NCBI GenBank assembly: GCA_040877915.1
Contig: JBBDNA010000006.1
Span: 26,993-90,992, forward strand
Direction: 5' to 3'
Length of the DNA stretch: 64,000 nt
Origin: Dehalococcoidia bacterium
Lineage (GTDB): Bacteria; Chloroflexota; Dehalococcoidia; SM23-28-2; RBG-16-64-32
Shown: positions 3,183 to 49,824 of the stretch, one piece after another
Layout of the letters: each line of letters begins with the position of its first letter
Position numbering within the stretch: position 1 is the first letter of the stretch
The notes under the pieces: model-generated
What the model saw: the letters and a program-made list of their open reading frames with translations, nothing else
What the model was told of the DNA's origin: nothing
The model's database searches: none
Position numbers and translations under genes: made by a program

Positions 3183-3210
3183 TTGACATACCACGCCCGG
3201 ATGGTATGCT
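3183..3210 (+). promoter_or_regulatory. Sigma-70-like promoter of the dcw cluster (Pmra)
   Basis: TTGACA at 3183..3188, a 16-nt spacer, then TATGCT at 3205..3210. It lies directly upstream of the MraZ-box repeats and 120 nt from mraZ. Confidence 0.5.
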
Positions 3211-3236
3211 GTGGGGCGAAGTGGGGAGGAGTGGGG
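3211..3236 (+). promoter_or_regulatory. MraZ operator: three direct GTGGGG repeats with 10-bp phasing
   Basis: GTGGGGcgaaGTGGGGaggaGTGGGGactt, each repeat followed by a 4-nt spacer, located between the -10 and mraZ. MraZ is known to bind phased GTGG(G/T) direct repeats in its own promoter. Confidence 0.55.
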
Positions 3237-3331
3237 ACTTCTCCCATATTCTGTTCAGCTCACGCCTGCCGGGCAGGGCGGCAGGCCCATATTAGCACAG
3301 CCGGCCCTGGCGTTGAAGGGAACGGGGACAG

Positions 3332-3754
3332 ATGGCCTTTCGAGGCAGGTACGAACACACGGTGGACGATCGCGGCCGGGTTGCCATACCGGCGCGCTAC
3401 CGCCGTGAGTTCGATGACGGGGCCGTCCTCACTCTCAGTCCCGAAGGATGTGTGGAGGTCTACACGCTCAAGAGCTTCGATGAGATGTCCGAACACGTCA
3501 TTACGGAACCCCCGACGCACCTGAAGGGCCGCAGGCTGCGCCGGGCATTCTTCGGTCTCTCCTGGGACGCCGAGCTAGACGGCCAGGGGCGCATCCTTAT
3601 CCCGCAGCAGCTGCGGGATGACGCCGGACTCGAAGGGCCCGTCGTCATCCACGCTCGCCGCGAATGCCTGGAGGTGTGGAACCGCGAGCGTTACACGGAG
3701 GAGCTGCGGCAGGTGCGCGAGGCCTACGCCGCCGAACTGGAGTCGTTGGAGTAG
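3332..3754 (+). CDS. mraZ: Transcriptional regulator MraZ
   Basis: 140 aa: [24 protein letters not shown]...[13 protein letters not shown], with duplicated SpoVT/AbrB-like halves. First gene of the dcw cluster. Confidence 0.9.
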
Positions 3755-3761
3755 GGGAAAG

Positions 3762-4712
3762 GTGGTTGCAACAATCTTCCCCGCTAGCGAGACCCAACCC
3801 CACGCTCCGGTGATGGTGGCCGAGGCGCTCGAGCTTCTGGCGGTCCAGCCCGGCGGCCGATACGTGGACTGCACGGTGGGCGGCGGTGGCCACTCGTTGG
3901 CCATCCTGGAGGCCGCCGCCCCCGGTGGTCTCCTCCTGGGCATCGACGCCGACCCGGCCGCCCTGGACACCGCCCGCGAGAGGCTGAAGCCGTACGCGGG
4001 CTCGGCCCTCCTGCGCCAGGCCAACTTCCGCGACCTGGAGACCGTCTGCCGCCAGGCCGACTTCGTGCCAGTGCACGGCGTCCTGTTCGACCTGGGCCTA
4101 TCGTCCATGCAGCTCGCCGACCCGGGGCGCGGCTTCAGCTTCCAGGTCGAAGCGCCGCTGGACATGCGCTTCGGCGCCGGCCAGACCACCACTGCGGACG
4201 AGATAGTGAACGGGTACCCGGAAGGCGAGCTGGCCGACCTGATCTGGCGATACGGCGAAGAACCGGCGTCGCGTCGCATAGCCCGCGCCATCGTCGGCGC
4301 GCGTCCGCTGGGAACGACGACGCAGTTGGCGGACCTCGTGTCCAGAGCCGCGGGCCGCGGCGGTCGCAGCCGCATCCATCCGGCCACGCGGACGTTCCAG
4401 GCGCTGCGCATGGCCGTCAACGACGAGCTGGGCGCGCTCGGCTCGGCGCTGCAGCAGGCCGTCGATGTCCTGGGCCAGGGCGGGAGGCTGGTGGTCATCG
4501 CCTTCCACTCTCTGGAGGACCGGATCGTCAAGCAGTTCATCAGCCACGAGTCGCGCGATTGCGTATGCCCGCCGGAGGCGCCGTCCTGCGTTTGCGGGCA
4601 TCGCGCCTCGCTGCGCCGCGTGACCCGGGGCGCGGTGCGCCCCTCCGAACGAGAGATCGCTGACAACCGGCGCGCCCGCAGCGCCCGACTGCGCGCCGCC
4701 GAGAAGCTATAG
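3762..4712 (+). CDS. rsmH: 16S rRNA (cytosine1402-N4)-methyltransferase RsmH/MraW
   Basis: [30 protein letters not shown] and HSLEDRIVK motifs. The start was moved to GTG 3762, just after the mraZ stop and preceded by GGGGAAAGG. ATG 3813 is an alternative that would remove the conserved H-x-PV motif. Confidence 0.85.
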
Positions 4713-4720
4713 GAGGCCGC

Positions 4721-5152
4721 TTGTCCACGATACCCAAGGCCGGGAGACACGTCCTGCCGGAGGTGCTCCGTTCGCCCAGCCTGCCCGCGCTCCTCATCAT
4801 CTGCGCCATGGCCATCGGCGGCGCCGCCATCATCCCCCTGGTGGGCTCCAGCGTGACCACTTCCACGAACGGCAACGTCCACCGTCTGGACCAGGACCTG
4901 GCGGACTGGCAAGCGCGAGTGCAGGAACGGGAGCTGGACGTTGCTACCATGGCCGGCCTCAACCGGATAGAGACCGTCGCCAAGAACGACCTCCACATGG
5001 AGGAGCCCAAGGACACGCGCTACGTCGTTGTGCCAGCGCCGCCGCCGGAAGAGCGCCGTTTGCCCAGCCGCTACCTGCCGCCCTCACCGGAAGACCGTGA
5101 ATCGGAGCCCGCGCTGTGGCAGCGGGTGCGGGACTGGCTACCTCTGCCGTAG
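4721..5152 (+). CDS. ftsL: Cell division protein FtsL-like (single-pass, coiled-coil)
   Basis: 143 aa with one TM (LPALLIICAMAIGGAAIIPLV) then a heptad-like region. Call rests on its position between rsmH and ftsI; sequence similarity is weak. Confidence 0.55.
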   Translation: MSTIPKAGRHVLPEVLRSPSLPALLIICAMAIGGAAIIPLVGSSVTTSTNGNVHRLDQDLADWQARVQERELDVATMAGLNRIETVAKNDLHMEEPKDTRYVVVPAPPPEERRLPSRYLPPSPEDRESEPALWQRVRDWLPLP

Positions 5153-5164
5153 GAATGGACTGAC

Positions 5165-6910
5165 GTGGCATCGCGTAAGCGCGGGGTTGGCTGGCGTCTG
5201 GGCGTCGTCGTGGCCGTTATCGGCATCGCCACCGTTGCGCTGACCCTGCGGCTGGTCCAGCTCCAGGTAATCGATCACGAGCGCTACGCGTCCGAGGCGC
5301 GCAGTATCCACGTGGCCCAGGAGACGATTCCCGGCCGGCGCGGAGCGCTGCTGGACCGCAACGGCTACCCGCTGGCCGCCAGCGTCGACACCTACGACGT
5401 CATGGTCGAGGTCGAACGCTGGCAGGACGATCCGGCGCAGGCCGGCGCCGCCGCCTCGGCAATCGCCGAAGTGACCGAGAGCGACCCCGAAGCGATGGTG
5501 GCCGATGTGGACGCCGCCTCAATCTATGAGATAGCCGTCGCCCGCGACCTGGACTTCGACCGTGCAACCCGGGTCCGCGAGCTGGGCCTGGGCGGCGTGC
5601 GGCTGCTGAGCGCCAGCGCCCGCGTCTACCCGGAGGGCAACCTGGCGGCTCAGCTCCTGGGCTACGTGGGCCAGGACAACACCGGACTCACGGGGCTGGA
5701 GGCCGACCTGGAGGGGATTCTGGGCGGCGACCAGGGGACGGTTGTCTTTGAACGCGACGGTCTGGGGAACCAGCTGGGTATCGGCGACCGGAACGAGAAG
5801 CCCCCCTCCCCCAGCGCCGACGTTGTCCTTACCATCGACCGCTTCATCCAGCGCATAGCCGAGCAGGAGCTGGACAAGGCGATCAAGGAACGCGACGCCG
5901 CCGGCGGCAGCGTCATCGTCGTCCGGCCGAAGACGGGGGAGGTCCTGGCCATGGCCAGCCGCCCCACGTTCGACCTGACGAAGCCGGACCTCAGTGACGA
6001 ATCGAAGCTGGCGCTGTTCCGCAACCTGGCGATCACTGACCAGTTCGAGCCGGGTTCCGTGTTCAAGCTGTTCACCACCGCCTGCGCCATTGACCTGGGC
6101 CTGGTGAACCCGGACACCTGGTGGTACGACGAAGGCGTCCTGAACATCACCGGCTGGAAGATCCGCAACTGGGACCTCAGCGCCAACGGCTCCCAGACGG
6201 TCACGCAGATACTGGCCAAGAGCCTGAACACCGGCGCGGCCTGGCTGGCCCAGCTCATAGGCCCGGAAAAGTTCTACGAGTACGTCAGCCGCTTCGGTTT
6301 CGGCGAGACCAGCGCCTCCGGCCTGGGCGGCGAGGTGGCGGGACGCATCCGCACGCCGGAGAGCGACCCGGCGAACTGGCGCGCGGTGGACATGGCGACG
6401 AACAGCTTCGGCCAGGGCATCAGCGTGACGCCGCTGCAGATGGCGATGGCGATCTCCGCCCTGGCCAACGAGGGCAAGCTGATGAAGCCCATCCTGGTCA
6501 AGGAGGTCTTGAGCCCGGGCGAATCGCAGCCTACCCAGCCGGAGGTGGTAGCGCAGGTAGTGACGCCGGAGACCGCCCGAACCCTGCTGGACATGATGGG
6601 CGTTGTAGTGGAGGGGATTCCGCCCAGTCTGCTGGACGTGCAGGGGTACAACGTGGGCGGCAAGACCGGCACGGCCAACATCATCGCCAGCAGCGGCGGA
6701 TACAAGGACGGCGCCTACATCTCCTCCTTCGCCGGCATCGTCCCCCTCGAGGACCCTGAGCTTGTGATCTACGTCAAGATAGACGAACCGAAGGGCATAC
6801 CCTGGGGCACCGTGGTCGCCGCTCCCGCCTTCGAGCGCATCGCCCAGGCGTCACTGGCCTACTTGAAGATAGCGCCGCAAGAACCGGCGCTGGTGGCGGC
6901 GGCGGAATGA
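5165..6910 (+). CDS. ftsI: Peptidoglycan D,D-transpeptidase FtsI (class B PBP)
   Basis: N-terminal TM, a dimerisation domain, and the transpeptidase motifs SVFK (GSVFKLFT), SLN (KSLNTGA) and KTGTA. GTG start at 5165. Confidence 0.85.
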   Translation: MASRKRGVGWRLGVVVAVIGIATVALTLRLVQLQVIDHERYASEARSIHVAQETIPGRRGALLDRNGYPLAASVDTYDVMVEVERWQDDPAQAGAAASAIAEVTESDPEAMVADVDAASIYEIAVARDLDFDRATRVRELGLGGVRLLSASARVYPEGNLAAQLLGYVGQDNTGLTGLEADLEGILGGDQGTVVFERDGLGNQLGIGDRNEKPPSPSADVVLTIDRFIQRIAEQELDKAIKERDAAGGSVIVVRPKTGEVLAMASRPTFDLTKPDLSDESKLALFRNLAITDQFEPGSVFKLFTTACAIDLGLVNPDTWWYDEGVLNITGWKIRNWDLSANGSQTVTQILAKSLNTGAAWLAQLIGPEKFYEYVSRFGFGETSASGLGGEVAGRIRTPESDPANWRAVDMATNSFGQGISVTPLQMAMAISALANEGKLMKPILVKEVLSPGESQPTQPEVVAQVVTPETARTLLDMMGVVVEGIPPSLLDVQGYNVGGKTGTANIIASSGGYKDGAYISSFAGIVPLEDPELVIYVKIDEPKGIPWGTVVAAPAFERIAQASLAYLKIAPQEPALVAAAE

Positions 6911-8298
6911 CGGCGCTGCGGATCGACGAGCTGACCGAGGCCGCGGACGGCCTCCTGATCGCCCGCGGCGGTCCCGCCGGCGGCGAGTTCCAGCGGGCCG
7001 TTATCGACTCCCGTGAGGCCGGCCCGGGCGACCTGTTCTTCGCCCTGCGGGGCGAGCGGCACGACGGCCACGAGTTCGTCGGCCAGGCGCTGGGCCGAGG
7101 GGCCACAGGCCTGGTCGTCGAGCGGCCGCTGGCCGTCCCGGACGGGATCACCGTCCTCCACGTGAACGACTCCCTGACCGCGCTGCAGCGGCTGGCCGCC
7201 CGGCGGCGCGAGTCCCGGCCGGACCTCCGCGTCATCGGCGTCACCGGCAGCGTGGGCAAGACAACGTGCAAGGAGCTGATCGCGGCCGTGCTGGGCGCGC
7301 GCCCAGACGGGCGCCCGTCCGGGCGCTTCCGCGTCCTCAAGAGCGAGGCCAACCTGAATACGGAAATCGGGCTGCCCCTGACCCTGCTGCGACTCGAAGA
7401 GGGGCACGAGCGCGCCGTGCTGGAGATGGCGATGTACGCCCCGGGCGAGATAGACCTCCTCTGCCACATCGCCCGGCCCCAGATCGGCGTCGTCACCAAC
7501 GTCAGCTCCGTCCACCTGGAACGGCTGGGCTCAATGGGCGCGATCGCCACCGCCAAGGCGGAGCTCGTGGAGGCGCTGCCGCCGGATGGTGTGGCCGTCC
7601 TCAACGGCGACGACCCTCGTGTCACCGCCATGGCCGCGCGGACGAAGGCCCGCGCAATCCTCTACGGCCGCTCCGAGCAGTGCGACGTGCGCGCCGGCGA
7701 GGTCGAGGGACGGGGTCTGGACGGCATCTCGTTCCGCCTGAGCCACGGCGGTTCGAGCGTCGCCGTCGAGATGCCGCTGCCCGGCCGCCACCACGTCTAC
7801 CCGGGGCTGGCCGCCGCCGCCGTCGCCCTCGCCGAGGGCATGACGCTGGAGGAGATCGGGGGCGCCCTGCGCGAGGCGCGGCCGGAGCTGCGCCTGCGCG
7901 TGCTAACCGCGCCCGCCGGCTACACGATCATCGACGACACCTACAACGCTAGCCCGCCGGCCATGATCGCCGCCCTGGACCTGCTGTCCGACCTCCCCGG
8001 GCGGCGAGTCGCCCTCCTGGGGGAGATGCGCGAGCTGGGCGACGACGAGGCCGACGGCCACCGCCGCGTGGGCGAGCGCGCCGCCGCCTGCGCCGACCTC
8101 GTGCTCGTCGTCGGCGAACGAGCGCGGCCGCTGTACGAGGCGGCGGCCTCAGGCCAGGCCGAGGCGCGATATCTCGACTCGGTGGAAGCCGCAACGTCCG
8201 CACTTCGAGACGAGCTGCGGCCAGGAGACCACTTGCTGGTCAAGGCCTCGCGGGCGGTGGGGCTGGAGTCAGTGGTCGAAGCCCTGGTAAAGACATGA
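6907..8298 (+). CDS. murF: UDP-MurNAc-tripeptide--D-alanyl-D-alanine ligase
   Basis: GVTGSVGKTTCKEL P-loop, IDDTYNASPPAM and a C-terminal VKASRAVGLESVVEAL that matches the MurF tail (not MurE). Overlaps the ftsI stop (ATGA). Confidence 0.85.
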   Translation: MTALRIDELTEAADGLLIARGGPAGGEFQRAVIDSREAGPGDLFFALRGERHDGHEFVGQALGRGATGLVVERPLAVPDGITVLHVNDSLTALQRLAARRRESRPDLRVIGVTGSVGKTTCKELIAAVLGARPDGRPSGRFRVLKSEANLNTEIGLPLTLLRLEEGHERAVLEMAMYAPGEIDLLCHIARPQIGVVTNVSSVHLERLGSMGAIATAKAELVEALPPDGVAVLNGDDPRVTAMAARTKARAILYGRSEQCDVRAGEVEGRGLDGISFRLSHGGSSVAVEMPLPGRHHVYPGLAAAAVALAEGMTLEEIGGALREARPELRLRVLTAPAGYTIIDDTYNASPPAMIAALDLLSDLPGRRVALLGEMRELGDDEADGHRRVGERAAACADLVLVVGERARPLYEAAASGQAEARYLDSVEAATSALRDELRPGDHLLVKASRAVGLESVVEALVKT

Positions 8299-9266
8299 TC
8301 CAGTCGTTGAGTCTGGGAGCGATGACGTTGACAGCGACACTGATAGCGGGATGGCCCTTCCTGGGGGCGTTGCGCCGCCTGAAGGTGGGTAAGGAGATCT
8401 CCGAATGGGGTCCCGAGACCCACCAGACGAAGGCCGGCACGCCGACGATGGGCGGCCTGCTGATCCTGGCCGCTGTCATCGTCTTCAGCCTGGGCGGAAA
8501 CCTCATCGGCAGGCAGTCCATCGGCCTGCCGCTGGCCGTGATGGCCGCGCTGGGCGCGCTGGGCTTCCTGGACGACCTGGGCTCGCTGCGCGGCCGCTTC
8601 GGCGGCCTGCAGGCGCTGAACAAACGCGTGAAGTTCGTCGCCTTCCTGGGCATCGGCGTGGCGGCCGCATACGGCCTGTACGAGGGCCTGGAGCTGAGCT
8701 CCGTCAACATCCCCTACGGCGACCGCTACGACCTCGGCGTCTGGTACCTGCCGATCGCCGTGGGCGTCATCGTCCTGACAGCGGGCGGCGTCGCCGTCAC
8801 GGACGGCCTGGACGGCCTGGCGGCCGGCACCACGGCCATCGCCTTCGGGGCCTACGGGATAATCGCCGTGCACCAGGAGCAGACGTTCCTGGCGGCGTTC
8901 TGCTTCACGGTCGTCGGCGCCGTGCTGGGCTTCCTGTGGTACAACAGCCACCCGGCGCAGATGTTCATGGGAGACACGGGGGCGCTGGCCCTGGGCGGCG
9001 GCCTGGCCACGGTCGCCTTCATGACCGGGCAGTGGCTGGTCCTGCCCCTGGTCGGCGCCATCTTCGTCCTGGAGGGCGCGTCCGACGTCATCCAGGTGGG
9101 CTACTACCGGCTGAGCGGCGGCAAGCGCATCTTTCGCATGGCGCCACTGCACCACCACTTCGAGAAGCTGGGCTGGAGCGAGCCCCAGGTGGTGCAGCGA
9201 TTCTGGATCATCGGCTTGCTGGGAGCGATCGTGGGCACGATTCTGGCGATGGGAGGTCTAGCATGA
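8295..9266 (+). CDS. mraY: Phospho-N-acetylmuramoyl-pentapeptide transferase
   Basis: 323 aa, 10 TM, with the conserved MraY motifs GKE..WGPE...K.GTPTMGG and MGDTGALALGG...HHHFE. ATGA overlap with murF. Confidence 0.9.
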   Translation: MIQSLSLGAMTLTATLIAGWPFLGALRRLKVGKEISEWGPETHQTKAGTPTMGGLLILAAVIVFSLGGNLIGRQSIGLPLAVMAALGALGFLDDLGSLRGRFGGLQALNKRVKFVAFLGIGVAAAYGLYEGLELSSVNIPYGDRYDLGVWYLPIAVGVIVLTAGGVAVTDGLDGLAAGTTAIAFGAYGIIAVHQEQTFLAAFCFTVVGAVLGFLWYNSHPAQMFMGDTGALALGGGLATVAFMTGQWLVLPLVGAIFVLEGASDVIQVGYYRLSGGKRIFRMAPLHHHFEKLGWSEPQVVQRFWIIGLLGAIVGTILAMGGLA

Positions 9267-20014: not shown

Positions 20015-21166
20015 ATGCCGAAACTGCAACTGCCACCCTGGCTGGCCGGCAACCCCCGCCGACAGGCCGTCGCCGGCGGCGCCGGAGTCCTCGCCCTCAT
20101 CCTCATCCTCGCCACCCTCACCGTCGGCGGCGTCTTTTCCGAGAGCTCGGACAGGGTCCTGTCCGTCGTCGCCACGCCGACGCCCACGCCTGCCCCACCC
20201 ACTCCCACCCCCACTCCTACGCCGGCGCCCAGCGAGCCCACGCGGCTGAACGGCCGCCTGGTTTACCCCGAGGAGCTGGCCGCGATCGAGGCCAGGCTGC
20301 CCCTGGCCATAATGTTCGACAACTTCATCGAGGCGCGGCCGCAGCACAACATATCGCAGGCCGACATCGTATTCGAGGTCGTCGCCGAGGGCGGCATCAC
20401 CCGCTTCCTCGGCGTTTTCTGGTCGAACGACCCGGGTCCGGTGCTGGCCGTGCGCTCCGCCCGCGCCTACTACCTGCCCTGGGCGGCCGAGGTGGACGGC
20501 ATCTACGTCCACTGGGGCCGCGCCAAATCTACCAACGCCGCCGCCGACGTTACGTCGACCCTTGAATCGCTGGGCCTGCGCCACTACGACGGCTTCTTCT
20601 CCGGCCCGCCCTACTTCGATCGCGCCCTCGACCGCCTCGGCCCCCACGACGGCATCGCCTACACGGACGCGCTCTGGCAGGCGGCGGAGGGCGACGGCTG
20701 GAGCGGCCCGCCGGAGTTCGAGTCCTGGCCGTTCAAGGACGACGAGCCGCGCGCCGGCGGCGAGGACGCCGCCCCGACTATCGACGTCGGCTTCGGCGGG
20801 CCGTTCTTCTCCGACTACGCCGTCACCTGGACGTACGACGCCGAGACCAACGGCTACGCGCGCAGCCAGGGCGGCTTCGAGCACGTGGACGGGACGACGG
20901 GCGAGACGATAGAGGCTCGCAACGTGGCGGTCATGGTGACGTCCGCCGCCGCCGCCGGCGACGGCACCGCCCACCTGGTGTACGACACCACCGGCAGCGG
21001 CGACGCTGTCGTCTTCCAGGACGGCGTGGCGATCCCCGGCACGTGGGCCAAGGAGGGGCCGTACGCCCGCACCCGCTTCTACGACGCCGCCGGCAACGAG
21101 ATCGCCTTCAACCGCGGCCACACCTGGATCGAAGTGCTCTCCTACGACGATCCTCTCTCGTACTAG
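20015..21166 (+). CDS. DUF3048-family secreted/lipoprotein (YerB-like) with Thr/Pro linker
   Basis: Signal-anchor (VLALILILATLTVGG), a PTPTPAPPTPTPTPTPAP linker, and the DUF3048 core motifs IMFDNFIEARPQHNISQADIVFEVVAEGGITRFLGVF. Confidence 0.6.
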   Translation: MPKLQLPPWLAGNPRRQAVAGGAGVLALILILATLTVGGVFSESSDRVLSVVATPTPTPAPPTPTPTPTPAPSEPTRLNGRLVYPEELAAIEARLPLAIMFDNFIEARPQHNISQADIVFEVVAEGGITRFLGVFWSNDPGPVLAVRSARAYYLPWAAEVDGIYVHWGRAKSTNAAADVTSTLESLGLRHYDGFFSGPPYFDRALDRLGPHDGIAYTDALWQAAEGDGWSGPPEFESWPFKDDEPRAGGEDAAPTIDVGFGGPFFSDYAVTWTYDAETNGYARSQGGFEHVDGTTGETIEARNVAVMVTSAAAAGDGTAHLVYDTTGSGDAVVFQDGVAIPGTWAKEGPYARTRFYDAAGNEIAFNRGHTWIEVLSYDDPLSY

Positions 21167-21488
21167 CCACAGATAGACACAGATTCTACACAGATTAGGT
21201 TCGTGTGGACTCGGTGTCGCTGCTGGTTGATGGCGGTGCAGGGATGCTGAACCTGTGCCCCGTCTGAGTGCATCTGTGGCGATACCTCCTATCCGCTGTC
21301 ATGGCGGGGTGGGAGGGATTCTCTGTGTCTCATCTGTGTGCATCTGTGGCAATTCCGGCGACCCGCTGTCGTAGGCGTCTTGCCACTGTCCACTGTCCAC
21401 TGTCCACTCCCCCGTGTTCCCTGTTCCCTACTCCTTGCTCTTCTCGCCTTCGTGACGCATTTCACCACTAAATGTTGTGTCTCCCCCC

Positions 21489-21517
21489 TTGACAACCCCT
21501 ACATGTAGTGCTATCTT
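21489..21517 (+). promoter_or_regulatory. Putative nrdR promoter with extended -10
   Basis: TTGACA 21489..21494, a 17-nt spacer whose last bases are TGc (21509..21511), then TATCTT at 21512..21517. It lies about 250 nt upstream of nrdR, followed by a GC hairpin (CGCCCCCT-cgctga-AGGGGGCG) at 21525..21546. Confidence 0.4.
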
Positions 21518-21765
21518 TCCTGTTGCGCCCCCTCGCTGAAGGGGGCGAACCGCTTCTGAGAGGCCACGCAGAGTTCTGTAAAGTTGGGCGAATTGATGGA
21601 CGTATCGGCGACCGGGGCGCAGGGTGAGCGCCACCACACCCTGGGGTCTGGCCCCACCGGCTCCGACAACCCGGGGCAGCTACGCCCCGCAGACCGACCC
21701 GCCCCGCTCTCCGCGCGGGCGATCCGCATCGGTCCGGCGCTACCGCCCAGGAAGGCGGCGAAGCC

Positions 21766-22359
21766 GTGAACTGCCCCTTCTGCGCCAGCCCCGACACCCG
21801 CGTCATCGACTCGCGGCCGGACGAAGCGGGCATCCGCCGCCGCCGCGAGTGCCTGGCCTGCGAGCAGCGCTTCACCACTTTCGAGAAGATCGAGCTGGGC
21901 TCCGTCGCCATCGTCAAGAAGGACGACTCGCGCGAGGAGTTCGACCGCGGCAAGATCCTGTCCGGCCTGCGCAAGGCCTGCGACAAGCGGCCCATCCCCT
22001 CCGGCGCCATCGAGGCGATCGCCGATGCCATCGAGCGCGCGGTGTACGCCCAGAACAAGGCCGAGGTCCCCTCGTCCTACATCGGCGAGCTTGTGATGGA
22101 GCGGCTGCGCGAGCTGGACCACATCGCCTACATCCGCTTCGCCTCCGTGTACCGCGCCTTCGCCGACGTTGACGAGCTGGAGCAGGAGCTGGAGGCGCTG
22201 AAGGCGGGCTGGCGCCGCCCCGACGTGCCGCGCGACCAGATGGCGCTGCTGCCGGAGGCCGAGGGCAAGGCGCCGAAGCCGCGGCTGCTGCGCGTGCGCC
22301 GCCAGAAGGACGGTCAGGACGCCCGGAGCCCTAAGGCCCGTCTGGGGAGAGCGCAGTGA
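21766..22359 (+). CDS. nrdR: Transcriptional repressor NrdR (Zn-ribbon + ATP-cone) with ~45-aa C-terminal extension
   Basis: MNCPFCASPDTRVIDSRPDEAGIRRRRECLACEQRFTTFE Zn ribbon, then an ATP cone (VIKKDDSREEFDRGKILSGL...AYIRFASVYRAF). GTG start with a GGAAGG RBS. Confidence 0.9.
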   Translation: MNCPFCASPDTRVIDSRPDEAGIRRRRECLACEQRFTTFEKIELGSVAIVKKDDSREEFDRGKILSGLRKACDKRPIPSGAIEAIADAIERAVYAQNKAEVPSSYIGELVMERLRELDHIAYIRFASVYRAFADVDELEQELEALKAGWRRPDVPRDQMALLPEAEGKAPKPRLLRVRRQKDGQDARSPKARLGRAQ

Positions 22360-22667
22360 CCCAGCCGCCGACCTCGGAGCTGGACGCCCGCATCGAGATG
22401 AAGGCGTTCATCGACCGCTCCCGCGCGCCCTACGCCGAGTGGTACGTGGGGCTGTCCGCCGACCCCCAGACGCGGCTGCACGAGGAGCACGGCGTCCAGG
22501 AGAGCGACTGGTTCATCCACCGCCGCCTGGCCGGCGCCGAGGCGGCCCAGCGCGTCCACGCGTCGCTGGTGGCCCTGGGCTGCGAGGCCGGCGGCGCGGC
22601 GGAGGGCGAGGAGGACGAACCGACCGGCGTGTACGCGTACTGGAAGCGAGGGCACACGACACCATGA
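22356..22667 (+). CDS. Hypothetical protein, translationally coupled to nrdR; possible GIY-YIG-like motif
   Basis: GTG start overlaps the nrdR TGA (GTGA). WYVGLSADPQTRLHEEH resembles the YIG..R.EH half of GIY-YIG nucleases, but the N-terminal GIY half is not clear. Confidence 0.35.
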   Translation: MTQPPTSELDARIEMKAFIDRSRAPYAEWYVGLSADPQTRLHEEHGVQESDWFIHRRLAGAEAAQRVHASLVALGCEAGGAAEGEEDEPTGVYAYWKRGHTTP

Positions 22668-22925: not shown

Positions 22926-23453
22926 GTGATGAGTTCGCACTGTTTCGGCGCCCGCGTCTACGTGATCCGGCACTACGCATTGCGCTGGTCGAGGGACAAG
23001 CTGGCCCGAAAGTTGGTCGAGCGTGGCCATCGGTTACCGCTCGACGATAGTCTAGAACTACGCGAGGTCACGCGCGACGAAATCAAGCGCTGGGAACGCG
23101 GTGAATCCGAACCGTCGTACGTAACAAAGCGGCATGTGGCTATCGTGCTAAGGATACGCCACGAGATTCTGGATCCCGAAGAGCATCCAGGCGACATTTC
23201 GCCTGAGGGTCTCGTAGCCCTCGCCCGAGCTCGCGGACTCACACCTCCGCAGATAAACCAGTATTGGACACTCACGAAGCAGCGTGCGCTATTCAAAGGC
23301 AATCCCGGAATCGGCGAATGGATCTCGATAATCGAACAACTCAGTATTGCAGAGCAGGGCACGCTGTTCACTAGCGGGACTTGGTGCACGCACTGCGGTG
23401 GCTGGATCGAAGACGGCGACGCCGAGTGCCCGGACTGCGGGAACATAGAATGA
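22926..23453 (+). CDS. XRE-family HTH protein with C-terminal CxxC...CxxC zinc ribbon (CapH/DdrO-like candidate)
   Basis: HTH_XRE-like LARKLVERGH...EVTRDEIKRWERGESEPS. The C-terminus carries CTHCGGWIEDGDAECPDCG. Lower GC (~57%) than its flanks. ATGA overlap with the downstream peptidase gene. Confidence 0.55.
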   Translation: MMSSHCFGARVYVIRHYALRWSRDKLARKLVERGHRLPLDDSLELREVTRDEIKRWERGESEPSYVTKRHVAIVLRIRHEILDPEEHPGDISPEGLVALARARGLTPPQINQYWTLTKQRALFKGNPGIGEWISIIEQLSIAEQGTLFTSGTWCTHCGGWIEDGDAECPDCGNIE

Positions 23454-24238
23454 CACAACCCGAACTGCCTCTTCGGAATATGCCAGCGCACCGACCGGCA
23501 AAGGAGGCAGCCCTTGAACGCGCCCGCCAGATCCTGAGGGAATCTGGCATTGACGGACCCCCGGTCGACATCGAGCGCGTGGCCCGTCTAATGGGCACTG
23601 TCGCTGTCGAGGAAGCCAGGCTTGGCGATGTGGCTGCTTGTCTCCTCCCAGGAACGAGAGGCCATACGATTCTGATTAACCGGCGATCACACCCGCTCAG
23701 ACAACGGTTTTCCATAGCACATGAGATCGGTCATCTCATCCTCGGTGCTCGTGGAATTCGTTTCCGAGACATGCGGACGGGACCTGCTGAAAGGTTGTGT
23801 GATGAGCTCGCGGCGGAGCTACTCATGCCCCACGAGATATTTACCCGCGAGATGGACGCCAAGCCGGTATCCCTTGATACCATCTGCGATCTAGCCAACA
23901 CCTTTCAGACGGCGCTAGAGCCTGCCGCTATCCGTTTCGGCGCTCTTGTGTCGGCTCCGGTCCAGGTTGTGTATTGGGAGAAGGTCGAGGATCACCTTCG
24001 CATCAAGTGGACGAATGGAAAGCCAATGCTACCCCGCACTGCCACTATGGGCCTCTTGACCGACCGGGCATTCGGTCCTGCAGAGGCGTTCAATTCCGAT
24101 AGTGAGGAAGGGGTCACGACTTACGCACATTCTTCGCGCTCGAAAAGCCTCGACCTGATCTGCGAATCCAAAGGCTTCAGAGAGCGCCCGTACAGATATG
24201 TTCTGTCTTTGGTTCGCAGGGAAGTAGTGCACGGCTAG
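23450..24238 (+). CDS. ImmA/IrrE-family (COG2856, DUF955) zinc metallopeptidase
   Basis: HExxH motif SIAHEIGHLIL with downstream E (ELLMPHE). Start trimmed to ATG 23450, which overlaps the HTH gene stop. A classic XRE-HTH + ImmA pair. It ends 14 nt before nrdJ. Confidence 0.75.
   Translation: MTQPELPLRNMPAHRPAKEAALERARQILRESGIDGPPVDIERVARLMGTVAVEEARLGDVAACLLPGTRGHTILINRRSHPLRQRFSIAHEIGHLILGARGIRFRDMRTGPAERLCDELAAELLMPHEIFTREMDAKPVSLDTICDLANTFQTALEPAAIRFGALVSAPVQVVYWEKVEDHLRIKWTNGKPMLPRTATMGLLTDRAFGPAEAFNSDSEEGVTTYAHSSRSKSLDLICESKGFRERPYRYVLSLVRREVVHG
24192..24206 (+). promoter_or_regulatory. Palindrome ACAGA-TATGT-TCTGT upstream of nrdJ (candidate NrdR-box-like operator)
   Basis: A perfect 5-bp inverted repeat around an AT-rich core that contains the -10-like TATGTT, about 45 nt upstream of the nrdJ GTG. 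It resembles the ACAC/GTGT-armed NrdR box with one change per arm. Confidence 0.35.
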
Positions 24239-24251
24239 AGGAGGCCAACCA

Positions 24252-27119
24252 GTGACCATCACCCGACCAGACACCCGAACCCGACGACAGGCCAAGAACG
24301 GCGCCCACAAGCCGGCCGCCACCAACGGCAAGCACGCCCCGGCCCTCCGACAGCGCGAGCGGCTCATCCAGCGCCGCTTCACGACGCCGGAGGTCGACCC
24401 CTACGACGCGCTGGCGTGGGAGCTGCGCACCGCCGTCATCCAGGGCTCCGACGGCACGCCCGTTTTCGAGCAGAAGGACGTCGAGTTCCCCGTCGGCTGG
24501 TCGCAGAACGCGACGAACGTCGTCGCCTCCAAGTACTTCCGCGGCCCCCTCAGCGATTCGGCGGCGGCAGCGCCCGGTCGCAACGCGCCCGTGCGCGAGC
24601 GCTCCGTGAAGACGCTGATCGACCGCATCATCGACAACATCACGCGCTGGGGCCGCGAGGGCGGCTACTTCGCCGACGAAGACGAAGCCGCCGCCTTCCG
24701 CGACGAGTTGAAGCACATCCTGGTCAACCAGGTCGCCTGCTTCAACTCGCCCGTCTGGTTCAACCTCGGCATCGAGGAGAAGCCCCAGTGCTCCGCCTGC
24801 TTCATCCTGGCCATCGATGACGAGATGGACAGCATCCTGGAGTGGTACCGCACCGAAGGCAAGATCTTCAAGGGCGGCTCCGGCTCCGGCATCAACCTCT
24901 CGAACCTGCGCTCGTCCAGGGAGCGGCTGACCGCGGGCGGGCTGGCCTCGGGGCCGGTGTCGTTCATGCGCGGGGCGGACGCCATCGCCGGCACGATCAA
25001 GTCCGGCGGCAAGACCCGTCGCGCCGCCAAGATGGTCATCCTCGACGCCGGCCACCCGGACATCGAAGAGTTCATCGACTGCAAGGCGAAGGAGGAGCGC
25101 AAGGCCTACGCCCTGGGCGAGGCCGGCTACGACGTGACGCTGGACGGCGACGCCTGGATCTCCATCCAGTACCAGAACGCCAACAACTCCGTCCGCGTGG
25201 CCGACGACTTCATGCGCGCCTACGAGGAGGACGGCGAGTGGCAGACCCGCTACGTCACCAACGGCGAGCCGGCCAACACCTACCGCGCCCGCGAGCTGAT
25301 GCGTCGCATCGCCCAGGCGGCCTGGGAGTGCGCCGACCCCGGCATGCAGTACCACACCACGATCAACGACTGGCACACCTGCCCCAACACCGGGCCGATC
25401 ACCGCCTCCAACCCCTGCTCCGAGTACATGCACCTCGACAACTCCGCCTGCAACCTGGCCTCGATAAACCTGCTGAAGTTCCTCCGGGAGGAACAAGGGG
25501 AAGCGGAGGGCGGTCCTGTTCCTGGTACCTTGAACCCTGTTCCTGGCGTCGATGTCGGGGCCTACTTCGACATCGACGCCTATAGGCACACCTGCGGGGT
25601 CATGATCACGGCCCAGGAGATCATCGTCTCCAACTCCTCCTACCCGACCGAGAAGATCGCGAAGAACGCGGAGGACTACCGGCAGCTGGGGCTGGGCTAC
25701 TCCAACCTGGGCGCACTGCTGATGTCGCTGGGCACCCCGTACGACTCGGACGAGGGCCGCGCCCTGGCCGCCGCCCTCACCGCCGTCATGACCGGCCAGG
25801 CCTACGCCACCTCCGCCGCCATCGCCGCCCGCGTCGGGCCGTTCAAAGGCTACGAGCTGAACCGCGAGCCAATGCTGCGCGTCATCGAGAAGCACCGCGC
25901 CGCCACGAGCGAGATCGACGATGCGGAGGCCCCCCCTCCGCTCGTGGCGGCGGCCCGCCAGGCCTGGGACGAGGCGCTGGCCCTCGGGCAAGAGTACGGC
26001 TATCGAAACTCGCAGGCGACGGTCCTCGCGCCCACGGGCACGATCAGCTTCATGATGGACTGCGACACGACGGGTATCGAGCCGGATATCGCCCTGATCA
26101 AGTACAAGAACCTGGTCGGCGGCGGCCTGATGAAGATCGTCAACTCCTCGGTGCCGCGCGCCCTGCACGGGCTCGGCTACGACGAACAGGCGTCGGAGGC
26201 CATCCTGGCCCACATAGACGAGACCGGTACCATCGAGGGCGCGCCCGGCCTCCTCGACGAGCACCTCCCGGTGTTCGACTGCGCGTTCAAGCCGCAGAAC
26301 GGCGTGCGCACGGTCCACTGGACGGGTCACGTGCGGATGATGGGCGCGGTGCAGCCGTTCATTTCCGGCGCCATCTCCAAGACCGTCAACCTGCCGGAGG
26401 ATGCCAGCGTCGAGGAGATCGAGGAGGCGTACTACGAGGGCTGGCGGCACGGGCTGAAGGCGCTGGCCATCTACCGCGACGGCTCCAAGCGGGCGCAGGT
26501 CCTGAGCACGAGCAAGGACGGCGACGCGAAGGCCAAGGACGAGCCTGCGGGCCACCCGGTGCGACGCCGCCTCCCGGCGACCCGGACGTCGCTCACCCAC
26601 AAGTTCGCGATCGAGGGGCACGAGGGGTACATCACGGCCGGTCTGTACGAGGACGGCTCGCCGGGCGAGATCTTCGTGACGATGGCCAAAGAGGGGTCGA
26701 CGCTGTCCGGCATGCTGGACGCCTTCGCCACCTCCATCTCGCTGACGCTGCAGTACGGCGTGCCGCTGCACGACATGGTGAACAAGTTCTCGCACATGCG
26801 GTTCGAGCCATCGGGGCGGACGGAGAACGCCGAGATACCGGTGGCCCAGTCGATCGTCGACTACATCTTCCGCTGGCTGGCCTCGCAGTTCATGAGCGAG
26901 GAGGAGAAGGAGCAGTTCGGAGTGCTATCGCCGGCGGTGAAGGCGAAGATGATGGCGGCGGAGTACGGGACGCCCCCGGCGCTGGCCGGCAACGGCGCCA
27001 GCTACAACAACTCGGGGCAGACGGACGCGCCGCCCTGCGCCAGCTGCGGCTGGATCATGGTGCGCTGCGGCACCTGCTACCGCTGCGACAACTGCGGCAC
27101 GACGAGCGGCTGCGGCTAG
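24252..27119 (+). CDS. nrdJ: Class II (adenosylcobalamin-dependent) ribonucleotide reductase, long form (955 aa)
   Basis: Large RNR catalytic core (NSVRVADDFM, LAPTGTISFMMDCDTTGIEP, ISKTVNLP), a C-terminal CASCGW...CGTCYRCDNCG zinc ribbon, no nrdB/nrdF partner, nrdR upstream. GGAGG RBS then GTG. Confidence 0.85.
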   Translation: MTITRPDTRTRRQAKNGAHKPAATNGKHAPALRQRERLIQRRFTTPEVDPYDALAWELRTAVIQGSDGTPVFEQKDVEFPVGWSQNATNVVASKYFRGPLSDSAAAAPGRNAPVRERSVKTLIDRIIDNITRWGREGGYFADEDEAAAFRDELKHILVNQVACFNSPVWFNLGIEEKPQCSACFILAIDDEMDSILEWYRTEGKIFKGGSGSGINLSNLRSSRERLTAGGLASGPVSFMRGADAIAGTIKSGGKTRRAAKMVILDAGHPDIEEFIDCKAKEERKAYALGEAGYDVTLDGDAWISIQYQNANNSVRVADDFMRAYEEDGEWQTRYVTNGEPANTYRARELMRRIAQAAWECADPGMQYHTTINDWHTCPNTGPITASNPCSEYMHLDNSACNLASINLLKFLREEQGEAEGGPVPGTLNPVPGVDVGAYFDIDAYRHTCGVMITAQEIIVSNSSYPTEKIAKNAEDYRQLGLGYSNLGALLMSLGTPYDSDEGRALAAALTAVMTGQAYATSAAIAARVGPFKGYELNREPMLRVIEKHRAATSEIDDAEAPPPLVAAARQAWDEALALGQEYGYRNSQATVLAPTGTISFMMDCDTTGIEPDIALIKYKNLVGGGLMKIVNSSVPRALHGLGYDEQASEAILAHIDETGTIEGAPGLLDEHLPVFDCAFKPQNGVRTVHWTGHVRMMGAVQPFISGAISKTVNLPEDASVEEIEEAYYEGWRHGLKALAIYRDGSKRAQVLSTSKDGDAKAKDEPAGHPVRRRLPATRTSLTHKFAIEGHEGYITAGLYEDGSPGEIFVTMAKEGSTLSGMLDAFATSISLTLQYGVPLHDMVNKFSHMRFEPSGRTENAEIPVAQSIVDYIFRWLASQFMSEEEKEQFGVLSPAVKAKMMAAEYGTPPALAGNGASYNNSGQTDAPPCASCGWIMVRCGTCYRCDNCGTTSGCG

Positions 27120-49158: not shown

Positions 49159-49824
49159 TCAGTACTTCGAAACGTTCAGCTCGCCGATCTTGCCCTCCAC
49201 CAGGTAGACCACCCGCTCGCAGATGTTGGTGACGCGGTCGGCGATGCGCTCCAGGTTGTGCGCCACCCAGGTCAGGTAGGTTGCGCGTTCAATCGTCTGC
49301 GGGTTGCCCAGCATGTACACGAGCAGCTCGCGATACACCTGGTCGTTCAGGGCGTCCACCTCGTCGTCCTGGTCACAGATGGCGACGGCACGCGCCGCAT
49401 CGCGGTCCTTGAACGCTTCCAGGCTGGACATCAGCATGCTCTGGCACAGCTGGGCCATGCGCGGGATGTCAATGTAGGGCTTGAGCGGCGGCGCGTCGGC
49501 GAGGAGAACGGCTATCTTGGCGATCCCCTCCGCGTGGTCGCCCATGCGCTCCAGGTCGACGACGATGTGCAGCACCGCGAAGATGGTTCGCAGGTCGCCG
49601 GCCAGGGGCTGCTGGGTGGCCACCAGCTCCAGGCACTTCTCCTCCGTCTCGTAACGCTTGCGGTTGATCTTCGCGTCGTCGGCGATGACCTGGCGGGCCA
49701 GCTCCACGTCGGGCCGGCGCAGGGCCTCCATCGACCGTTCGATAGCGCCGTGCACCATCGTGGCCAGCACCAGCATGTCCTCCTGGATGACCTCCAGCTG
49801 CCGTTCGAACTCGACTCGTGTCAT
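49159..49824 (-). CDS. phoU: Phosphate-transport regulator PhoU
   Basis: 221 aa with duplicated PhoU repeats (DxxxD metal sites: DDAKINRKRYE, DDEVDALNDQ). Downstream of pstB. Confidence 0.9.
   Translation of the reverse strand: MTRVEFERQLEVIQEDMLVLATMVHGAIERSMEALRRPDVELARQVIADDAKINRKRYETEEKCLELVATQQPLAGDLRTIFAVLHIVVDLERMGDHAEGIAKIAVLLADAPPLKPYIDIPRMAQLCQSMLMSSLEAFKDRDAARAVAICDQDDEVDALNDQVYRELLVYMLGNPQTIERATYLTWVAHNLERIADRVTNICERVVYLVEGKIGELNVSKY

Follow-up and report, generated by a model that had tools for sequence, protein, structure and literature searches.

The intergenic region between a DUF3048 gene and nrdR was analysed in a 64,000-nucleotide stretch of the Dehalococcoidia bacterium contig JBBDNA010000006.1 (hereafter the window), and the six CACAGAT units that it carries are, in our judgement quite probably, the two inverted arms (one of them tandemly duplicated) of a gene-less copy, similar to a miniature inverted-repeat transposable element (MITE), of a widespread palindromic family of GxxExxY gene cassettes; the copy likely has no role for nrdR, which would be autoregulated in the ordinary way. 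The first-pass annotation of the region had favoured a multi-site array for a transcription factor, naming NrdR autoregulation as one possibility, and had offered a decayed mobile-element terminus or an unusually structured leader RNA instead. The mobile-element terminus came close to the data, with the refinement that the element resembles a gene-less copy of both inverted arms of a GxxExxY cassette. Compared loci are designated by L and a number, and coordinates without a locus refer to the window (Table 1).

The three direct units (plus strand, 21168, 21178 and 21189, with a phasing of 10-11 bp) and the three inverted units (minus strand, 21272-78, 21332-38 and 21342-48, each with a C before the motif) were present as first annotated. 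CACAGAT occurs at seven sites in the window against 4.35 expected, a total that is not unusual, and six of the seven are clustered in 181 bp, the sole other copy lying at 49374. The left arm begins directly after the TAG stop codon of the DUF3048 gene and agrees with the family consensus (A/G)ACCACAGAT GAACACAGAT GAACACAGAT; it has the two to three C[AG]C[AG]GA[T/G] units at intervals of ~10 nt, with a C before the outermost unit, by which arms of the family were recognised, as well as a convergent partner arm no more than a few hundred nucleotides away. The inverted units fall in two three-unit right arms, some units of which are degenerate. Right-arm copy 1 forms inverted repeat I2 with the left arm (31 nt, 71% complementary, 53 nt between arms) and copy 2 forms I1 (36 nt, 78% complementary, 127 nt between arms), the unit periods being mirrored, 10 then 11 nt in the left arm and 11 then 10 nt in the right. 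In the minimum-free-energy fold of the element the outer stem consists of the left arm and right-arm copy 2. The two 40-bp direct repeats that had been annotated here are real, but they are longer and shifted (D1, 21253-21300 and 21323-21370, 48 nt, 79% identical).

The heptamer microsatellites that follow, among which the CCACTGT tandem had been correctly annotated, are not present in the closest relative (L081) and fill the interval from the element to the promoter in a lineage-specific manner. Their inclusion in the element was considered and rejected: short tandem repeats were found near 19% of family arrays versus 13% of random positions, which is no clear link. CCACTGT-type heptamer tandems also occur at other positions, just before the nrdR start codon in L084 (643-663) and at 8589-8613 in L006, and we take them to resemble the short tandemly repeated repetitive (STRR) heptamers of cyanobacteria.

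Arms of the same kind form a family found in metagenome and viral contigs. A scan of metagenome contigs with the exact pattern CACAGATNNACACAGATN{3,4}CACAG yielded at least 120 stretches, and a looser pattern yielded 76 in viral contigs; some of the scan hits were plain microsatellites (e.g. L275 and L281), and gene calls in the metagenome loci were crude calls of the longest open reading frame (ORF). The arm consensus consists of three units of ~10 nt, CCACAGAT-GAACACAGAT-GAACACAGAT, and the architecture is convergent: a convergent partner array lay within 300 bp of 106 of the 251 strict arrays, versus a divergent one for two, and the spacer between arms was shorter than 150 nt in 88 of 96 pairs. 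The inverted repeat runs ~4 nt past the arm (e.g. GGAACC...GGTTCC), and tandem duplication of one arm together with its flank, as seen in the window, is also found in L193 and L140. Several copies per contig were present in L093, L262 and a Thiodictyon plasmid, and the GC content of the host contigs ranged from 27 to 71%. Genes flanking the arrays occurred in all relative orientations and had no function in common: the 76 downstream proteins gave 93 Pfam families, among which only PDDEXK_3 appeared twice. The elements lack a target-site duplication, direct flank matches being equal to the shuffled expectation at 4-20 nt in the 69 pairs analysed. An Rfam scan of compact and full-length family members returned only sub-threshold microRNA-hairpin look-alikes, the arm consensus was without a match in the phage database, and no description of the repeat, or of its association with GxxExxY, was found in the open-access literature; the element is apparently undescribed and very widespread.

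Two further, unusual arrangements were observed in the scanned contigs. L165 contains at 5690-6060 a tandem array in a single orientation, with modules of ~95 nt alternating between CACAGAT x3 and CGCAGAT x3, and L262 contains at 4250-8560 four ATCTGTG arms that all point the same way, two being located beside CTTCGCG repeats of similar period. Both hint that there are several types of unit and that elements may be nested or chained.

Full-length copies carry a GxxExxY gene (PF13366 / TIGR04256), which encodes a protein of ~130 aa of a PD-(D/E)XK nuclease-fold family. Three of the four pairs with spacers of 390-540 nt enclosed such a gene (L167, L194 and L140), and a further GxxExxY gene lies immediately beside an array in each of L183 and L193. 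The association was also examined from the protein side, with four GxxExxY proteins chosen by homology search alone and their encoding contigs retrieved: all the inspected flanks (n = 6/6) had CACAGAT x2-3 upstream and ATCTG(T/C)G x2-3 downstream. Gene and arms together occupy short gaps between co-oriented genes, such as a preT/preA-like pair and a flavin adenine dinucleotide (FAD)-oxidase/electron-transfer flavoprotein (ETF) pair; loci with such cassettes are L291-L300 and L303-L307 (gene at 701-1090 in L291), L301 and L302. Among the six inspected flanks, the downstream arm of L301 is the exception, with one degenerate unit left beside an inserted hairpin. The stop codon of the upstream gene lies inside an arm in L291 (a called TGA, left arm) and in the annotated Thiodictyon plasmid. 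In L291, the ribosome-binding site of the downstream gene is situated ~25 nt after the right arm.

Variant arms (CACAGAG, CACGGAT, CGCGGAT) were found near distant homologues in three of four named genomes, those of Bacteroides finegoldii, Treponema and Gemmatirosa. The Bacteroides finegoldii arms comprise TTCACCACAGAGGACGCAGAGGACACGGAG and its complement (30 nt, 90% complementary), the arms of Treponema saccharophilum measure 28 nt and contain CACACGGAT, and Gemmatirosa has a separate gene-less CGCGGAT x3 hairpin downstream of the GxxExxY gene; the repeats flanking a homologue on a Fusobacteria plasmid are direct, not inverted. No GxxExxY relatives were confirmed in viral contigs. The window copy has no PF13366 gene between its arms, and 88 of the 96 pairs are likewise of the gene-less form. 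A profile search with PF13366 gave at least 7973 hits, and the only literature entry found in open-access text gives the function of GxxExxY proteins as unknown (PMC3424549).

The presence of the element among Chloroflexota relatives is patchy. L081 shares the gene order and highly similar proteins (NrdR 92% and DUF3048 84% identical), and has an intergenic region of 226 bp without CACAGAT units, which are also missing from L011 and L083-85. L001 and L002, which belong to another clade, carry a compact array right after the DUF3048 stop codon, consisting of 2-3 degenerate left units abutting 2-3 ATCTGTG units. The six contigs of the L002 species differed mainly within this array, core included (CACAG to CATAG in L091; ATCTGTGG to ACTTGTGG in L087), and the promoter block was almost invariant. 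Judging from these alignments, variability within the L002 species together with absence from relatives is not the behaviour of an operator; sites of a regulon would be conserved at orthologous promoters and enriched beside related genes, and the array was neither. The window and L001/L002 have the site and the outer flank GGCAA(A)TTC in common while sister genomes are without the element, so that the element must either have been lost several times or have been acquired repeatedly at one site. A blastn search covering the window and 91 loci gave no dispersed copies beyond the orthologous sites.

Between DUF3048 and nrdR there appears to be a hotspot of small insertion events, L083-85 carrying yet other insertions there. 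A different small repeat family has expanded in the nrdR leader of L010 (5560-6000), where about five copies of the CCCCAACCTTnnnGTTGGGG hairpin lie inside longer repeats of ~90 nt.

nrdR itself is very likely autoregulated by NrdR at two predicted 16-bp boxes overlapping its -35/-10 promoter, because the boxes fit the published definition of the operator, two partially palindromic 16-bp boxes 15-16 bp apart (PMC13584703), and are conserved with the promoter in relatives. A degenerate NrdR-box pattern matched at 21466-21479 (no mismatch) and 21497-21510 (one mismatch), which are two of its three hits in the window; the pair 21465-21480 and 21496-21511, with its 15-bp linker, corresponds to the operator definition and the CACAGAT array does not. 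Autoregulation, which the first-pass annotation had named as a possibility, would act through canonical boxes that this annotation had not recognised, and it would not involve the CACAGAT units. The previously annotated promoter was recovered, with its 17-nt spacer and extended TG, as the one promoter-like site in 20900-22000 (0.1 expected), and in an alignment of 15 related Chloroflexota loci both boxes were conserved and the -35 hexamer was invariant. The GC hairpin noted earlier was also confirmed and is conserved in the 15-locus alignment; in L006, L007 and L009 a C-G pair is replaced by G.U, a double change.

The whole 600 bp had been described as a leader, but only ~21524-21765 can be one, because all that is to the left of the promoter precedes the transcript. 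Homology with L081 stops at 21586, and the tail of the leader (21737-21780) has a match in L082. The 247-nt leader folded no better than its shuffles (z = +0.37), the Rfam scan of the window and region gave no relevant match for it, and no intrinsic terminator (GC-rich stem-loop followed by a U tract) was detected in 20900-22000. An unusually structured leader RNA is therefore not supported by the fold or by Rfam; across relatives conservation is confined to the short 5' hairpin, the remainder being a lineage-specific expansion.

Table 1. Features of the DUF3048-nrdR region of the window (positions in nucleotides; TRF, Tandem Repeats Finder).
Feature	Positions	Strand	Description
DUF3048 gene	20015..21166	+	ORF; Pfam DUF3048 on the L081 orthologue; orthologues match by tblastn
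Left arm, palindromic element	21167..21195	+	CCACAGAT-ag-ACACAGAT-tct-ACACAGAT; 3 units, periods 10 and 11 nt
Right arm copy 1, degenerate	21251..21279	-	ACCTGTG, GTCTGAG, ATCTGTGG
Tandem duplication of right arm with ~20 nt of outer flank	21253..21370	+	70-nt period
Right arm copy 2	21321..21349	-	CTCTGTG-tctc-ATCTGTG-tgc-ATCTGTGG; periods 11 and 10 nt
Heptamer microsatellites	21383..21429	+	CCACTGT x3.7 (21383-21408), TGTTCCC x2.1 (21415-21429); TRF
NrdR box 1 (predicted)	21465..21480	.	ccaCTAaATgTTGtgt; pattern match with 0 mismatches; conserved in 15 relatives
Sigma-70-type nrdR promoter (predicted)	21489..21517	+	TTGACA, 17-nt spacer, TG-n-TATCTT
NrdR box 2 (predicted)	21496..21511	.	cccCTAcATgTAGtgc; between -35 and -10, 15 bp after box 1
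GC hairpin at predicted 5' end of nrdR transcript	21526..21547	+	Inverted repeat I13; stem 21526-21533 / 21540-21547
Lineage-specific expansion of nrdR 5' leader	21587..21745	+	No detectable structure or family
nrdR	21766..22359	+	GTG start; ORF 100% identical to P0001 (annotated as NrdR; Zn-ribbon and ATP-cone domains); no record in an exact-protein look-up

An array for a transcription factor is the reading that the first-pass annotation had put foremost; in the form considered here, a host regulator of phased direct repeats (of the OmpR/PhoB type, for example) would bind CACAGAT on one helix face and modulate nrdR or DUF3048, and we regard this as decidedly unlikely. The 10-11 bp phasing, the invariant 7-mer core, the low GC for this genome and the compact array that L001 and L002 have at this position all speak for a regulator, yet L081, L011 and L083-85 retain the promoter and the NrdR boxes without the array, and the core positions mutate freely within one species (L087 and L091). 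Identical arrays elsewhere lie beside genes without a common function, in hosts that differ widely in GC, and the strictly convergent pairing suits inverted arms and not operators. The helix-turn-helix (HTH)-like and ImmA/IrrE-like genes at 22926-24238 were considered as the source of the binding protein and rejected, since they are missing from L001, L002 and L081 and so do not track the array. Selection for an RNA hairpin, whose arms would pair in the 3' untranslated region of DUF3048 or in a read-through transcript and act as a terminator, an insulator or an RNase III site, is compatible with a mobile origin of the element, and we consider it unlikely without dismissing it. It would accord with a fold whose z-score is lower on the plus strand (-106 kcal/mol, z = -4.2) than on the minus strand (z = -2.7), with the closure of two or more reading frames by arms read outside-inwards (57% of cases versus 13% with random spacers), and with A-to-G changes compatible with G.U pairing that across the family favour the sense strand by 15 to 6. 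That last count, however, is not significant, and a stem does not need a repeat of the same 7-mer at each turn; moreover, the element is not kept in sister genomes, has no Rfam family match, and lies in a region where no terminator-like site was found.

Two further readings would connect the units with known proteins, and both are less credible still. The units could be extra NrdR half-sites, resembling the half-box CAC(A/T)A(N)A, onto which NrdR oligomers spread from the operator; CACAGAT matches four of the six informative positions of the local half-site and the true operator lies less than 300 bp away, but NrdR sites are paired partial palindromes of 16 bp with a linker of 15-16 bp (PMC13584703), and the units are direct 7-mers with a period of 10-11 bp. 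Arrays elsewhere are not beside nrd genes, and L081 has none; this explanation has very little probability. A cluster of DnaA boxes coupling nrdR to replication initiation seems equally improbable for the window, even with canonical boxes occurring at this position in more distant relatives: TGTGGATAA abuts NrdR box 1 in L007 and L009, boxes of the TTCTCCACA and TGTGGACAA types lie upstream of nrdR in L004, L005 and L012, TTCTACACA at 21184 differs from TTWTNCACA by one mismatch, and TGTCCAC is contained in the CCACTGT tandem. The array has a single site with at most one mismatch (21184-21192), and the window total of 19 is close to the 12.9 expected by chance; the invariant CACAGAT includes GAT, which falls outside the DnaA box, whereas DnaA positions 1-4 are variable; and arms of this same kind are found around GxxExxY genes from many phyla. 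The boxes of L007 (5679-5720) and L009 (5384-5425) lie beside or just upstream of NrdR box 1, and the window is without such boxes. The motifs suggest a putative DnaA input to nrdR in the lineages of L004, L005, L007, L009 and L012.

For the gene-less cassette copy that we favour, the mechanism can be outlined conditionally. The cassette's own nuclease-fold protein, acting in trans, would recognise the phased decamers or, alternatively, the arms might serve as a cruciform or hairpin substrate; spread would follow a homing-like, recombination-dependent route and not DDE transposition, and the local copy would be neutral for nrdR. The window element is most likely without a role in nrdR control, and its effect would at most be a long hairpin in read-through RNA from DUF3048. 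A more far-reaching proposal, which we advance tentatively as a serious possibility that falls somewhat short of probable, is that the palindromes are the ends of an undescribed class of selfish cassette with a GxxExxY PD-(D/E)XK gene as its sole gene. Such a cassette would enter short intergenic gaps, those within operons included, without target-site duplication; its own protein would bind or cleave the arms, which would also be inward-facing stop-codon traps; and it would decay to gene-less hairpins from Chloroflexota to Bacteroidota, the array upstream of nrdR included. Stop-codon closure, the sense-strand lean of the G.U-compatible changes and the fold of the window element are consistent with life inside transcribed regions.

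Several points weigh against reading the window array as a member of a mobile family. The search was seeded with the exact motif, and its counts are conditioned on it; the chance yield of the exact scan ("a few") is a rough estimate based on a guessed collection size. Mobility is deduced from distribution, not from a base-resolved pair of empty and filled sites. The 64-kb window holds one copy only, and neither a GxxExxY gene nor a remnant of one was detected in the window or in the relatives' loci with hidden Markov models (HMM) or tblastn. Finally, the site and flank shared with L001/L002 could reflect long retention and thereby hint at some local use.

Other features of the window were recorded beside these. 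A TTGACA promoter-like site followed by three direct GTGGGG repeats (3211-3237, 10-bp period, 2.7 copies by TRF) occupies 3184-3237, just upstream of a MraZ-like ORF (3332-3754) at the head of the dcw cluster; we take it to be a canonical MraZ operator, presumably a phased-repeat contrast to the CACAGAT array of the same window. At 22926-24238, between nrdR and the class II ribonucleotide reductase gene nrdJ (24252-27119), an HTH-like ORF (175 aa) overlaps an ImmA/IrrE-like ORF (285 aa), both assignments being our presumption from reading the sequence. The nrdR-nrdJ gap holds just one to three small ORFs in L081, L082, L001 and L002, and the ORF pair looks like a separate lineage-specific insertion. 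An ORF of 103 aa (22356-22667) overlaps the nrdR stop codon, and ORFs of 98-108 aa follow nrdR in L081, L082, L084 and L085, none of them with a Pfam hit on record; the 103-aa ORF may belong to the nrdR-nrdJ operon of this group as a conserved gene that lacks annotation.

For nrdR the consequence is small, the conspicuous repeats being, on our reading, a passenger. The very abundant function-unknown family GxxExxY (PF13366) is now tied to a specific and easily recognised DNA architecture, which opens its role to test as a nuclease that would act on its own phased-repeat arms. The association would also explain a class of intergenic palindromes that are otherwise mistaken for operators, iterons or terminators in annotation.

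Among known systems, MITEs and intergenic palindromes such as the Correia elements of Neisseria, the repetitive extragenic palindromes and bacterial interspersed mosaic elements (REP/BIME), the enterobacterial repetitive intergenic consensus (ERIC) and the cyanobacterial Nezha are short, gene-less, dispersed and bounded by inverted arms. The element resembles them in its terminal inverted repeats, its gene-less dispersed copies, its presence or absence between close relatives and the minority of longer copies with a gene. It differs from them in being without a target-site duplication and in that each arm consists of three phased decamers and not of a unique inverted repeat, that the cargo has the PD-(D/E)XK fold and is not a DDE, HUH or REP-associated tyrosine (RAYT) transposase, and that the same unit is found across hosts of 27-71% GC. 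Homing systems offer a second comparison, among them the free-standing seg and mob genes of T4 and the PD-(D/E)XK homing endonuclease I-Ssp6803I. As with free-standing homing-endonuclease genes, a single small gene for a nuclease-fold protein occupies a short gap between conserved neighbours of like orientation, as in the preT/preA-like operon, and no target-site duplication is seen; to our knowledge, however, homing-endonuclease genes do not have phased-repeat inverted arms or leave gene-less palindromes, and the nuclease activity of GxxExxY is, unlike theirs, a prediction from its fold. The intervening sequences of 23S rRNA, in which an ORF (S23p / four-helix-bundle proteins) sits in the loop of a long stem, likewise combine a small ORF with a long inverted-repeat stem inserted into a transcribed region, whereas the present element lies between protein-coding genes and its cargo belongs to another protein family. 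The repeats upstream of mraZ are a phased direct-repeat operator, and the left arm similarly has three direct repeats with a period of ~10 bp; unlike them, the CACAGAT arrays are convergent pairs, scattered beside unrelated genes and without conservation at orthologous promoters.

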